64,000 bases of DNA from a virus, in the IMG/VR virus record IMGVR_UViG_3300042309_001835, positions 11,553-75,552 of that record. One strand, given 5' to 3'. The notes beneath the pieces were generated by a model. The model had not been told where the DNA came from. It did not search any database and worked only from the letters and a program-made list of their open reading frames with translations. The translations under genes were made by a program, and so were the position numbers. This document shows positions 10,543 through 45,913 of this stretch, piece after piece. The first letter of the stretch is position 1. Each line of letters begins with the position of its first letter.

Positions 10543-12150
10543 ATGCGCTTACATTTGGTCGGCATATTCCACACCAAGCATAAAGCATCATTTAGCCACT
10601 GCGCCTTTACCGGTAAAGCGCTGCGCTTTCCCAAGATGATGCAAAAATATGGTCATCATGTCATTGAATACAGCAACGAAGGCAGTGAAAGCACGGCGGA
10701 CGAACACGTGCAAATACTGAATGCCAGTGAGTTTGATGCACTGTATGGATCACGCAAGTCAACTGACTTTTATGGCGACGATGCCACTATAGGAAGCGCT
10801 GGACATACTGCTTTTGAATCTCGCCTGGTTGATGAACTCAGGGAACGCATTCAACCTCAGGACATCGTGTGTCATCCGTTTGGCCACGCCCACCAGCGCC
10901 TGATGGAAGAATTCCCCGATAACCAACATGTAGAAACCGGTATTGGATATCCGACGCTGATGCCATCCAGCTTCAGGATATTTGAAAGCTATGCCTGGAT
11001 GCACTACCATCAGGGCAAGGAAAACAGAAATGGTCGCAACTATGAATGGGTTGTACCAAATTACTACGACTTGGATGATTGGGATCCGAACTACGAGCCT
11101 GGTCAATACTACGCGTTCTTGGGACGTATCACCAGCCTGAAGGGCATGGATACGTTGCGTGCCATGGCTGACTACCTGAGGTATCCAATCGTCCTGCACG
11201 GCCAAGGGAGCCCAGACAAGTGGGCTCATCCCAACATCGAATACAAAGGCCCCCTGAGTGGTCGTGCCCGCAGTAACTTCTTGGGTGGTGCCAGGGCGCT
11301 GCTTGCACCAACGGTATTTACTGAGCCATTTTGTGGCATGGCCGTTGAGGCAATGTTGTGTGGGACGCCTGTCATCTCAGTGGATTACGGGGCGATGACG
11401 GAAACCGTGCAGCCGGGGATGGGTTTCCGTTGTCACACCCTGCAGGACTGGTTGGAAGCAGCCGATGCGGTTGGCGACCTGGACAGGAAGTTTATCGCCG
11501 ATACCGCCCGTGCCAAATACAGCCTGGAAGCGTGTGGTGCCAAATACGACAAAATCTTCAGGCAAATAAATGATCTGTATCGTAAGGGATGGTACGAAGT
11601 AAGTTATTTCAACTATACGGAAATCGAAACAGAAGAAAAGCCCTTTGCTGATCGCCTGGCGGCATGGATAAAAGAAAACATCGGTCCAGTCCATTGCCTG
11701 GATATTGGATGCGGTCCAGGGACGTATGTTCGCTCACTTCGTAATCTCGGATTGGAAGCCGTTGGTATTGATATCGATGAACGCGTCGACAGCATACCGC
11801 ATCTGTATCGACGTAGCATGTTTGACAGCAAGGCGACGGCAGAATTGGTGCTATGTCTTGAGGTCGCCGAACATATTGACAAGGAACTATCAGCAGAGGT
11901 TGCTCGCTCTGTATGTGATAGCGTCAGGAAGCCAGGGATCTTGATATGGTCTGCGGCCCACCCAGGTCAAGGCGGCGTCGGACACATTAACTGTCAACCA
12001 AAGGAATTCTGGCAGGAACTGTTGGAAGTCAATGGTCTTGTCCGTGACGAAGAACTTGAATCGGAAATGATCGAGGATTTATCGAATGGTTACCATATGG
12101 GATGGTTCGTTCAAAACGCAATGATTTTCAGGAATAACTCAACCCAGTAA
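10543..12150 (+). CDS. GT4-like glycosyltransferase fused to a class I SAM-dependent methyltransferase
   Basis: FLGRITSLKG and EPFCGMAVEAMLCGTPVI (GT-B); LDIGCGPG and CLEVAEH (methyltransferase). Confidence 0.85.
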   Translation: MRLHLVGIFHTKHKASFSHCAFTGKALRFPKMMQKYGHHVIEYSNEGSESTADEHVQILNASEFDALYGSRKSTDFYGDDATIGSAGHTAFESRLVDELRERIQPQDIVCHPFGHAHQRLMEEFPDNQHVETGIGYPTLMPSSFRIFESYAWMHYHQGKENRNGRNYEWVVPNYYDLDDWDPNYEPGQYYAFLGRITSLKGMDTLRAMADYLRYPIVLHGQGSPDKWAHPNIEYKGPLSGRARSNFLGGARALLAPTVFTEPFCGMAVEAMLCGTPVISVDYGAMTETVQPGMGFRCHTLQDWLEAADAVGDLDRKFIADTARAKYSLEACGAKYDKIFRQINDLYRKGWYEVSYFNYTEIETEEKPFADRLAAWIKENIGPVHCLDIGCGPGTYVRSLRNLGLEAVGIDIDERVDSIPHLYRRSMFDSKATAELVLCLEVAEHIDKELSAEVARSVCDSVRKPGILIWSAAHPGQGGVGHINCQPKEFWQELLEVNGLVRDEELESEMIEDLSNGYHMGWFVQNAMIFRNNSTQ

Positions 12151-44415: not shown

Positions 44416-44719
44416 TGCCCTTCTATCTTAGACGAATACTGGAGGGAAGCAACCCCCGGCCCGCCGCAGTGTTACAATTTATTGACACGCCACATCAGGC
44501 GTAACCGTTGCATTACGTTACAATCCCCTTGTTTCATAGTATCCACGATTTAATTGAACCCAGAAAGCGGATGCTTCAATGCGCTGGCTCCAGGCTTCTG
44601 GGTCCGATGGGTCGTGGATATTTTGCAGATATATTGGCGGGAACATTGAACGCTTCCAGGCCCTGAAGGCCCAATAAATATAGCCCACGCTATTGCAGAC
44701 AAACTAGCATAGATTACCA

Positions 44720-44821
44720 GCGCCCAGACGGGAATCGAACCCGCATCGTAGTCCTGTCATATAGCATTGCGTCCAACGCATCAGCCAGGTACCGACCTGT
44801 CCAGTTGGTTCGGACTGGGCG
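44720..44821 (-). ncRNA. tRNA-like RNA with canonical acceptor and T-arm but no normal anticodon arm
   Basis: CGCCCAG/CTGGGCG, GCGGG-TTCGATT-CCCGT; 102 nt. Confidence 0.6.
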
Positions 44822-44822
44822 A

Positions 44823-44896
44823 CGACTCAGACAGGACTCAAACCTGTGACCGACCGCTTAGAAGGCGGTTGCTCTATTCAACTGAGCTACTGAGCC
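44823..44896 (-). tRNA. tRNA-Arg(UCU)
   Basis: GGCTCAG/CTGAGTC acceptor, ACCGC-CTTCTAA-GCGGT anticodon arm. Confidence 0.9.
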
Positions 44897-44909
44897 ATTA
44901 GTCAGGCAG

Positions 44910-45365
44910 GGCGTCTTACCGTATCGGGCGGTATCTCCTGGCTATGTGCCAGGCGTGTTCCTTACACCAAGACGCAGTGACCCTCCTGTTTGTGCATCAT
45001 CCAGCGTCCTGGGGCTAAGCATAGAGGGTGTTTGCACGGATCTAACCTGCGATCCGTAAGGGGTACCTTCTCCCTAAGGGGCCCCGCCGGGTCCGGGACG
45101 GTTGGTCAACCGTATGCAGTCCGTCGAGCTTGCCAAGTGGGTCGAGGGCTCAACCGTGGACTAGACGGGCGGAGGTGATCAACCCTCCGGCCTGGAAACC
45201 CAGGACTTCACGCAGGTCAACAACGATCGAAAATTTCCGATCCAGAATCGACGCAGTGCCCATTCCTGTTGACTGCACCCCGCCGACAGAGCAGCGTGGG
45301 GGGTTAACAGAAGGATTGGGCGTGACCGGATACAAAAGTAACCAGACAGTGGCCCAACCTCTGTC
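44910..45365 (-). ncRNA. candidate large structured RNA region, including a mini-cloverleaf at 44910-44975
   Basis: About ten adjacent hairpins, a 7-bp loop-to-distal complementarity, no credible ORF, promoter upstream. Confidence 0.55.
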
Positions 45366-45371
45366 ACTAAC

Positions 45372-45380
45372 AGTATACCA
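45372..45380 (-). promoter_or_regulatory. extended -10 promoter (TG-G-TATACT) for the RNA cluster
   Basis: Plus strand AGTATACCA directly upstream of the structured region. Confidence 0.5.
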
Positions 45381-45385
45381 CAAAG

Positions 45386-45913
45386 TCAGTCCACGTTGAC
45401 TGCCATCTCAGACCTGATTTGCTCAAAGTCGATTGGCCTGTAGTCCGTATGTTCTACGCATACGCATCTGTATCTGAGATCGGGCTCATCTTTCTCATCC
45501 AAGACTTGTCGGTAATGTAAATGTCCATGGATATTGCCCTTGTACCTGATGACTCCACAAGTGTGAACAGGAATATGCGTCAGGACATAATGATCCAGGT
45601 AATGACACCCTCTGATGTCATCAAAATATTTCACATAGTCCTGTAGCTTGAAAATATCATGATTTCCTCTGATTAGAATCTTCCTGCCATTCAGCCTTTC
45701 TAGACACTTCAGTCCACGCCTGGGAATAGCCACGTCTCCAAGGTGGTAAACTTTATCCTTGGGGCTAACGGTGTTGTTCCAGTTGTCGATCAATGCTTCA
45801 TTCATTTCATCTACGTCATCCCAGGGCCTGAGCTTGGAGCCGTCGTCCCTGGTGAATCGGCAGACGCCGCCATGCCCGAAATGTGTATCAGAGATTAAGA
45901 ATGTCTTCGTCAT
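45386..45913 (-). CDS. calcineurin-like metallophosphoesterase
   Basis: DTHFGH, LGD, GNHD, THIP, HGHLH. Confidence 0.9.
   Translation of the reverse strand: MTKTFLISDTHFGHGGVCRFTRDDGSKLRPWDDVDEMNEALIDNWNNTVSPKDKVYHLGDVAIPRRGLKCLERLNGRKILIRGNHDIFKLQDYVKYFDDIRGCHYLDHYVLTHIPVHTCGVIRYKGNIHGHLHYRQVLDEKDEPDLRYRCVCVEHTDYRPIDFEQIRSEMAVNVD

Follow-up and report, generated by a model that had tools for sequence, protein, structure and literature searches.

A modular RNA array of a cyanophage with probable mimics of host AbiF leader RNAs

The abiF motif is an RNA found in front of the toxin genes of the Abi_2 (AbiD/AbiF) family (PMC12373285). RCd22, from the Clostridioides difficile phage phi027, has two abiF motifs: it binds AbiF, neutralises it in cis as well as in trans and lowers the expression of abiF in cis (PMC12373285). 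Abi_2 is a member of the HEPN RNase superfamily (PMC3710099, PMC12373285). The RNA which we describe here lies in a stretch of 64,000 nucleotides (nt), positions 11,553–75,552 of the IMG/VR virus record IMGVR_UViG_3300042309_001835; we call this stretch the window and use its coordinates throughout. The record is a complete virus of 75.5 kb whose tail-fibre genes are similar to those of the cyanosiphoviruses S-CBS2 and S-CRES; it is likely to come from a lake cyanophage, with freshwater picocyanobacteria (Cyanobium-type) as hosts. A first-pass annotation had proposed there a large non-coding RNA which it did not recognise as a known family. We have found an array of small modules, named M1 to M6, on the minus strand. 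The phage probably makes this RNA to disarm AbiF, because two of the modules, M1 and M5, copy leader RNAs of host AbiF genes.

The likeness to the abiF motif and RCd22 lies in M5, a hairpin with a basal stem of 6 base pairs (bp), a bulged A, a second stem of 3 bp and a CAAA-rich internal loop on its 3' side. However the phage hairpin is an orphan, unaccompanied by Abi_2, and has one classic motif where RCd22 has two. It is also embedded in an RNA of several modules and has on its 3' side a tRNA-like element instead of a terminator or a toxin open reading frame (ORF). The cyanomyovirus S-CREM1, a phage of estuarine Synechococcus, has been reported to contain an abiF small RNA (sRNA) within an array of tRNAs and wcaG and manA RNAs, and no link is drawn there from this sRNA to host Abi_2 leaders (PMC9964418). 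Over 45 nt its hairpin shares 95.6% identity with the short phage form of M5, and it is placed 4 nt before a tRNA. S-CREM1 differs in that the short hairpin is all it has, flanked by genuine tRNAs and Rfam motifs already known; the RNA of the window is a composite, about 470 nt long, whose M1, M2, M3/M4a and M4b/c are absent from Rfam.

The closest functional analogy would be the pseudo-ToxI RNA by which phage PhiTE of Pectobacterium escapes ToxIN (PMC3475682). In both cases a phage RNA resembles the RNA antitoxin of a host toxin, and the proposal is that it holds an RNase of abortive infection in its inactive state. ToxI is a tandem series of 36-nt repeats processed by the toxin itself, whereas in the window two leader types are represented by single hairpins, next to unrelated domains, and the modules are probably set free by enzymes of tRNA processing. 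ToxI-like tandem repeats have not been seen in the array alignments, to which no dedicated tandem-repeat scan was applied, and the phage loci have no toxin gene. The function has been demonstrated for PhiTE, while for the array we infer it. The concept of mimicking the RNA partner of a defence protein is also that of the RNA anti-CRISPRs, solitary phage-borne mimics of CRISPR repeats: copies of the RNA partner mislead the protein. Both the defence system and the RNA are different in our case, and no sequence resembling a CRISPR repeat has been seen in the array. GOLLD and ROOL, which are single conserved folds often found next to phage tRNAs, are similar to the array as structured non-coding RNAs of several hundred nt beside phage tRNA genes; the window differs by having a combinatorial array of small independent modules. 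The models of GOLLD, ROOL and other large non-coding RNAs have no match over positions 44500–45600, on both strands and at E<=10: only tRNA and a weak abiF appear.

Homologs of the array and host counterparts of M5 and M1

Homologs were searched with a phosphoesterase gene (phrog_547) as bait and two conserved DNA motifs as probes, followed by nhmmer. Relatives of the RNA were found in 79 loci of IMG/VR cyanophage contigs, 56 of them distinct, always on the strand equivalent to the minus strand of the window. Their alignments show a conserved –10 hexamer and then the string of modules M1–M6. The modules come and go independently, in 22 combinations among the 56 instances, so that the array is not one monolithic RNA. 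M1 is present in 39 instances, M5 in 41, M3 in 32 and M4a in 24. The array can be as small as M5+M6 or M1+M5+M6, and 12 instances have all modules in the same order. Pairs were counted on MAFFT alignments, with shuffles and structures slid by 1–3 columns as controls: none or almost none of the shuffles reaches the observed covariation, and the slid structures fall to 10–60% paired. Covariation supports M1, M2a, M3/M4a and M5. The family is a structured and modular RNA array, conserved in at least 56 distinct contigs. A blastn search of positions 44700–45400 against 50,697 phage records gave the tRNA-Arg as sole match; in five Cyanobium-type genomes, a BLAST search with the whole RNA brought up nothing beyond chance matches of 18–22 nt inside coding regions.

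M5 has the architecture of the Rfam consensus RF03085: a P1 of 6 bp, a single bulged A, a P2 of 3 bp and a 6-nt internal loop on the 3' side which is similar to CAAAUC. In the Rfam alignment the window copy reads CCCUCU-A-UGC-(23 nt)-GCA-CAAACA-GGAGGG-U, with P1 formed by CCCUCU/GGAGGG, the bulged A, P2 formed by UGC/GCA and CAAACA as the internal loop. Both stems covary in 18 phage copies (P2 pair: UA in 10, AU in 8). The M5 homologs L080, L102, L142 and L134 reach 55.3–55.7 bits against RF03085. A model (R2, alignment A7) built solely from 16 host Abi_2 leaders of Cyanobium and Synechococcus matches positions 44972–45034 of the window with 28.3 bits (E 3e-6) and finds M5 in 30 phage loci, the window included. 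Judged by its sequence, M5 belongs to the abiF RNA motif. The hairpin occurs in unrelated types of phage, both in siphovirus-like contigs and in the T4-like Kyanoviridae. It is not located upstream of an Abi_2 gene, as its host counterparts are: Abi_2 is absent from the complete 75.5-kb phage record and from 146 related loci (1.2 Mb).

The counterparts were located with the phage-M5 pattern, which occurs at 36 places in bacterial contigs with one genome per species; 16 or 17 of them are in freshwater genomes of Cyanobium, Synechococcus or Prochlorococcaceae. There the hairpin sits behind a TTGACC promoter and in 13 cases ends about 16 nt before an Abi_2 ORF (Pfam Abi_2, 172 bits). Four other picocyanobacterial sites are orphan remnants. 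Orphan leaders of abiF type with no intact Abi_2 are found in hosts in L156, L176, L162 and as a second copy in G055 (G055:C64:13900-13960); they look like remnants of deleted toxin genes. Five more matches, of the short phage-type hairpin, are in unrelated metagenome-assembled genomes, with the labels Rubrivivax, Methylacidiphilales, Bacteroidetes and Acidimicrobiaceae. A metagenome-assembled contig labelled 'Chitinophaga pinensis' has a Cyanobium Abi_2 locus with 99% protein identity. These odd labels (L151, L157, L173, L178 and L169) are probably due to binning errors or mis-binned phage DNA.

M1 is a long hairpin with the structure GACAGAGG-UUGGGC...GCCCAA-UCCUUCUGU and a variable tip. Its six inner pairs are always formed and show heavy covariation, for example with CG in 10, UA in 10, GC in 3 and AU in 1 (alignment A5, 25 copies). 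A model (R3) built from the 25 phage M1 copies only matches three of the 151 host-family genomes (G051, G068 and G144), and nowhere else, with 50.5–50.9 bits (E ~1e-9). All three sites are on the same strand as Abi_2 genes, found independently, and just upstream of them; they lie behind a TTGACA promoter and end about 16 nt before a probable TTG start codon. These Abi_2 genes have no leader of M5 type. Phage and host copies have in common GAUAGAG, the 6-bp stem, CCNCUGU, the tip hairpin, UCACGC, the returning strand and CAUC. From these features M1 is taken as a homolog of a second, non-Rfam type of leader of picocyanobacterial Abi_2 genes. Its plan is like that of M5: a basal stem is followed by a second stem which begins with AAGC, next come CUCUG and a hairpin at the tip, and then the strands return; it is probably a divergent abiF motif. 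In the host loci L208, L209 and L210 (positions 1501–1560) the Abi_2 leader has 60 nt and the form GAUAGAGCUCAAGCCCCUGU-hairpin-UCACGCUUGAGCCAUC; it is a candidate for a new abiF-associated motif.

When Pfam alone is used, Abi_2 is detected in 19 of 401 cyanobacterial genomes. Just upstream of these ORFs R2 finds 11 leaders, the Rfam abiF model at its threshold 4 and R3 one. Among the 151 host-family genomes six have Abi_2, two with an M5-type leader, three with an M1-type leader and one as a pseudogene. Three of the leaders found by way of Pfam have an interior, UAAGCCUCUUAACAAUGCUCAAA, identical to that of the phage copies L134 and L079, and differ only in the basal stem. The 53-nt leader hairpins of Cyanobium-type Abi_2 genes (L148, L155, L158 and others) fall below the gathering score of RF03085: the Rfam abiF model under-detects cyanobacterial members with an extended tip. 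The remark in the first-pass annotation that the RNA is not recognised as a known family holds in part: no Rfam family reaches its gathering score in the window RNA and none matches the whole of it. It fails for M5, with its weak abiF match at 44980–45028 and its membership in this motif, and for M1, with its homology to the second host leader.

The other modules and the tRNA-like elements

The positions of all features are collected in Table 1. M5 is directly followed by M6, a miniature tRNA-like cloverleaf whose acceptor stem covaries (GCGUCUU/AAGACGC vs GCAUCUU/AAGAUGC); it falls beyond the stretch first annotated and is part of the same unit. It has a short D arm and an anticodon loop, CACAUAG, with A at position 33 and CAU in the anticodon position; its T loop is CCCGAUA in the window and UUCGAUU in relatives. 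Some relatives are called tRNA-Met or tRNA-Ile by ARAGORN, while the window copy is called neither by ARAGORN nor by the Rfam tRNA model. In 44 of 45 distinct phage copies of M5, a 7-nt segment placed –1 to +3 nt from the ...GGGUCACU end is closed by its complement 56–98 nt downstream; 39 of these 44 have a T-loop motif and 20 an ARAGORN tRNA call. This last count is the firm figure, because the closure test has no random control. In S-CREM1 the hairpin annotated as abiF precedes a tRNA-Gly by 4 nt, within the run of tRNAs and wcaG/manA RNAs, and in S-SZBM1 it is directly before a tRNA-Ala. Such regularity of the junction would be expected if RNase P sets where the hairpin ends on its 3' side. 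In L123, L095, L068, L134 and L097 the tip of M1 is a hairpin, UUAGG-CACAUAG-CCUAG, whose sequence is that of the anticodon-like arm of M6, and one small hairpin is thus present in two modules.

Table 1. Features of the array and its surroundings. Alignment coordinates are q = 45386 minus the window position.
Feature	Window position	Strand	q	Basis
Metallophosphoesterase, 175 amino acids, phrog_547	45386–45913	–		no Pfam match at E<=0.01
Extended –10 element TGgTATACT	45372–45380	–		read directly from sequence
M1 long hairpin	45306–45369	–	17–80	alignment A5, model R3
M2a hairpin, nearly invariant 10-nt loop UGCUCUGUCG	45267–45303	–	83–119	alignment A1
M2b variable hairpin region, including the GATCG/CGATC stem	45214–45271	–		homolog alignment
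M3/M4a pseudoknotted domain, ~100 nt	45115–45213	–	173–271	alignment A6
M4b/c swappable segment	45034–45116	–		homolog alignment; structure partly resolved
M5 abiF-type hairpin, enlarged tip	44973–45033	–	353–413	Rfam abiF, R2, homologs
M6 miniature tRNA-like cloverleaf	44908–44975	–	411–478	homolog alignment
tRNA-Arg, anticodon UCU	44821–44897	–		ARAGORN and Rfam tRNA model, 63.8 bits
Second tRNA-like element and terminator-like hairpin	44683–44821	–		sequence reading; terminator scan

In M2a, 92.9% of the cells are paired and five of the eight pairs show changes on both sides (23 copies); its covariation score is matched by 0 of 500 shuffles. The pattern of its loop, with 3 mismatches allowed, gave only noise in 301 host-family genomes. 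M2b is variable: read by eye from the alignment, its stem is GAUCG/CGAUC, GUUCG/CGAAC or GACUGG/CCGGUC. A closure of positions ~45163–45284 as the 'top half' of a tRNA-like structure was rejected: it is not conserved, since the 3' strand of M2a changes and GCCCG does not.

M3/M4a contains the hairpins CCUGG-GUUU-CCAGG and CGGAGG-GUUGAUCA-CCUCCG, a pseudoknot helix CCG/CGG, an outer stem GUCC/GGAC and an inner stem UGAGC/GCUCG whose loop, GACCCA..UUGGCAAG, is conserved. Its 25 pairs are formed in 99.3% of the cells and nine of them have double changes, the pseudoknot helix included, where a pair is CG in 13 and AU in 5 (18 copies); counted separately, M3 is 100% and M4a 95.6% paired. Its model (R1) had no credible match in the host clade (sets of 5, 151 and 28 genomes), upstream of the 19 cyanobacterial Abi_2 genes or in S-CBS2, S-CRES1 and S-CRES3; a sole match of 25 bits is inside a coding region and was rejected. 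A pattern scan of metagenomes gave 31 loci, of which 29 are the same phage-type arrays and none adjoins Abi_2. In M4b/c the window has a hairpin CGGUUG-AC-CAACCG, a mini-hairpin CCC-GGCG-GGG and a hairpin ACGGAUC-GCAGGUUA-GAUCCGU, with a possible G/C-rich pseudoknot. This version is common to about four independent sequences (L006, L068, L095 and the window), and unrelated segments hold its position in other contigs.

Transcription unit and neighbouring gene

The first-pass annotation had described a non-coding, densely structured RNA next to phage tRNAs, with an extended –10 box on the minus strand, and these points agree with our results. Its four ORFs of 62–89 amino acids have no Pfam family, and the homologs show module swaps and frame-shifting indels. 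The minus strand folds at –160.2 kcal/mol, below its shuffled controls (z –3.36; plus strand z –2.04). The –10 box, TGgTATACT, is present with its hexamer kept as TATACT, TATAAT, TATAGT or TACAAT, at equal spacing from the GAYAGAGG start, in 14 homologs. The three tRNAs which ARAGORN finds in the window are all on the minus strand, as is the RNA, and the tRNA-Arg lies downstream of the array in the same orientation. ARAGORN finds no tmRNA in the window. Other identities, tmRNA, RNase P RNA, signal recognition particle RNA and group I intron, were also rejected: they have no support from Rfam or ARAGORN, and the bits which resemble them sit in stems that pair differently.

Several of the stems proposed in that annotation are genuine and covary: ACCCTC/GAGGGT is P1 of M5, CGGAGG/CCTCCG and CCTGG/CCAGG are in M3, AGTCC/GGACT is the outer stem of M4a, and GATCG/CGATC and ACGGTTG/CAACCGT are seen in the homolog alignment. 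The two long-range helices find no support in the homologs. In the long stem GCCCA..TGTTGAC/GTTAACA..TGGGC, GCCCAA pairs instead with TTGGGC inside M1, in the six pairs described above. In the multibranch closure CCGCC/GGCGG, GGCGG belongs to a short hairpin formed locally, which reads CCC-GGCG-GGG in the window and CUC-GGCA-GAG in relatives, and CCGCC overlaps the covarying hairpin B of M3 and the pseudoknot helix. For the possible long-range pseudoknot ACCTGCG/CGCAGGT, both sides are held by four distinct sequences; three of them pair, through one-sided changes which allow wobble pairs, and one is unpaired. The RNA as a whole is genuine, densely structured and apparently driven by a promoter, but it is not a single RNA, as its modules are gained and lost independently.

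The unit is also larger than first described. Transcription would start at about 45364–45368, as judged from the –10 box, and the region is probably the main body of one minus-strand transcription unit, from about 45366 down to 44683. The tRNA-Arg is immediately followed by a second tRNA-like element (44720–44821), in which the acceptor stem (CGCCCAG/CTGGGCG) and the T arm are good and a long irregular middle stands where the anticodon arm would be. The terminator-like hairpin at 44700–44683 is the probable end of the unit. Another terminator-like hairpin, at 45387–45402 on the minus strand, directly follows the phosphoesterase stop codon and overlaps the area upstream of the –10 box of the RNA. 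Metatranscriptome contigs of 165–291 nt, from four runs in three studies, fall within 45066–45352; they have no strand and no level, DNA carry-over is possible, and they give a weak hint that the array is expressed. One of them runs on into the different M1 of a relative. The flanking genes and positions 44924–45065 have no such contigs, which is not evidence of absence.

The phosphoesterase gene adjoins the array in many contigs (L002–L081), in the same orientation, either upstream or downstream. About half of the loci found by DNA motif alone have it next to the array and co-oriented. In many relatives its start comes 12–20 nt after the end of M5+M6. Among solved structures the protein has a single distant relative, the uninformative hypothetical protein aq_1665; a link to the healing of RNA ends after nuclease attack is conceivable. 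Within a few kb of the array, glutamine-II and glnA-type glutamine riboswitch aptamers are found in L044, L036, L018, L102, L142 and L007. Glutamine-II riboswitches are typical of cyanophages.

Interpretation and alternatives

We favour, with moderate confidence, that the array delivers orphan mimics of the AbiF antitoxin which neutralise abortive infection by AbiF. During infection the extended –10 promoter would drive a precursor of independently folding modules, which would end in the tRNA-like cloverleaf, the tRNA-Arg and the second tRNA-like element. RNase P would cleave at the junction with M5, at the 5' end of the tRNA-like element, and the other pieces would be trimmed by further enzymes of tRNA processing. 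The freed M1 and M5 would bind the host AbiF as surrogate antitoxins and keep the nuclease inactive, and with AbiF inactive the abortive infection would fail. The M2a hairpin and the M3/M4a domain may be further decoys. The observations behind this proposal are homology, covariation, modularity, the host counterparts beside Abi_2, the phages' lack of an Abi_2 gene and the joining of M5 to tRNA-like elements; from them we infer the transcript ends, the processing, the binding to AbiF and the anti-defence effect.

Several points weigh against this proposal. Defined transcript ends, cleavage by RNase P and binding of AbiF are reasoned from comparisons, the hint of expression comes only from contigs of uncertain origin with neither strand nor level, and the host of the phage is placed only as a likely clade, the freshwater picocyanobacteria. 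The M5 of the window has diverged: it has a tip of 23 nt instead of about 11 nt and its low score against RF03085, due to this enlarged tip, is 16.5 bits (E 9.1), under the gathering score of 37. The M1-type host leader is known from three genomes only. The host loci of R2 were fished with a pattern from the phage alignment, which is partly circular; this is offset by the route which used Pfam alone. Abi_2 is sporadic (6/151 family genomes; 19/401 cyanobacteria) and therefore a permanent counter-measure pays off against some hosts only. M2a, M2b, M3/M4a and M4b/c, which make up over half of the region first annotated, have no host counterpart and are not explained by the decoy idea. Finally, the position of M5+M6 directly upstream of the phosphoesterase gene in many relatives also fits a cis-regulatory role.

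Such a role has to be weighed with other explanations, all of them less well supported than mimicry of AbiF leaders. The RNA could be a cis-acting leader or attenuator of its neighbours, the phosphoesterase or the tRNAs, which reuses the attenuating property of the abiF leader: RCd22 has this effect on abiF in cis (PMC12373285). The short distance between M5+M6 and the phosphoesterase start in many relatives, and the adjacent, co-oriented gene in about half of the motif-only loci, agree with it. However about half of the motif-found loci have no phosphoesterase gene, in the window the array is downstream of this gene and has its own promoter, what follows M5 is a tRNA-like element and not a terminator or a ribosome-binding site, and in S-CREM1 and S-SZBM1 the hairpin lies between tRNAs. 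We consider a cis-acting role unlikely. It is quite unlikely that the RNA is a single large molecule with one global fold and one function, in the manner of GOLLD or ROOL, with the modules as its domains. The dense structure (z –3.36) beside phage tRNAs, the possible long-range pseudoknot pairing kept in three of four sequence types and the 12 of 56 instances with all modules in the same order would fit such a fold. They are opposed by the 22 independent combinations of modules, by M1 and M5 standing alone in hosts as leaders of about 60 nt, by the covariation which contradicts the two proposed long-range helices and by the lack of any GOLLD or ROOL match even at E<=10.

A function as decoy substrate, rather than as inhibitor, is also rather improbable. 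The modules and tRNA-like elements would absorb the cleavage by HEPN or anticodon nucleases, or would aid RNA repair together with the phosphoesterase; the place of Abi_2 in the HEPN RNase superfamily (PMC3710099, PMC12373285), the richness of the arrays in tRNA look-alikes and the metallophosphoesterase (phrog_547) often adjacent to them are in agreement. Yet M1 and M5 match the leader of the toxin itself and not a known target, AbiF has no known RNA substrates, and the phosphoesterase has no informative structural relative. Least probable of all, and hardly to be expected, is a decaying remnant with no present function, formed by captured host abiF loci which lost the toxin and kept the leader, plus intergenic debris. 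Host genomes do have orphan leaders with no Abi_2 (L156, L176, L162 and, in G055, a second copy), but in the phages compensatory changes keep the stems across dozens of diverged genomes, the same hairpin is present in siphovirus-like contigs and in T4-like Kyanoviridae, and the tRNA-like junction is precise and conserved.

The mimicry of AbiF leaders could be part of a wider design, which we put forward only tentatively. The whole RNA might be a decoy cassette with several targets, where each swappable module imitates the RNA partner of a different host defence protein and phages reshuffle the modules to the repertoire of their hosts. M1 and M5 would then cover two subtypes of AbiF, M3/M4a and M2a would inhibit defence proteins not yet recognised as regulated by RNA, and the tRNA-like elements would be built-in processing signals.

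The comparison has given a new type of Abi_2 leader RNA, the M1 type, which is absent from Rfam, and, in M3/M4a, a pseudoknotted RNA domain of about 100 nt which is also new. It also provides a tractable test system, as the cultured phages S-CREM1 and S-SZBM1, which grow on Synechococcus CB0101, carry the same hairpin. M2a and M3/M4a could lead to defence systems whose control by RNA has yet to be recognised. The AbiF/Abi_2 family is related to the ancestors of Cas13. If our proposal is true, natural phages go beyond one antitoxin look-alike and assemble combinatorial arrays of RNA mimics against the AbiF/Abi_2 nucleases, with tRNA-like elements which release them.

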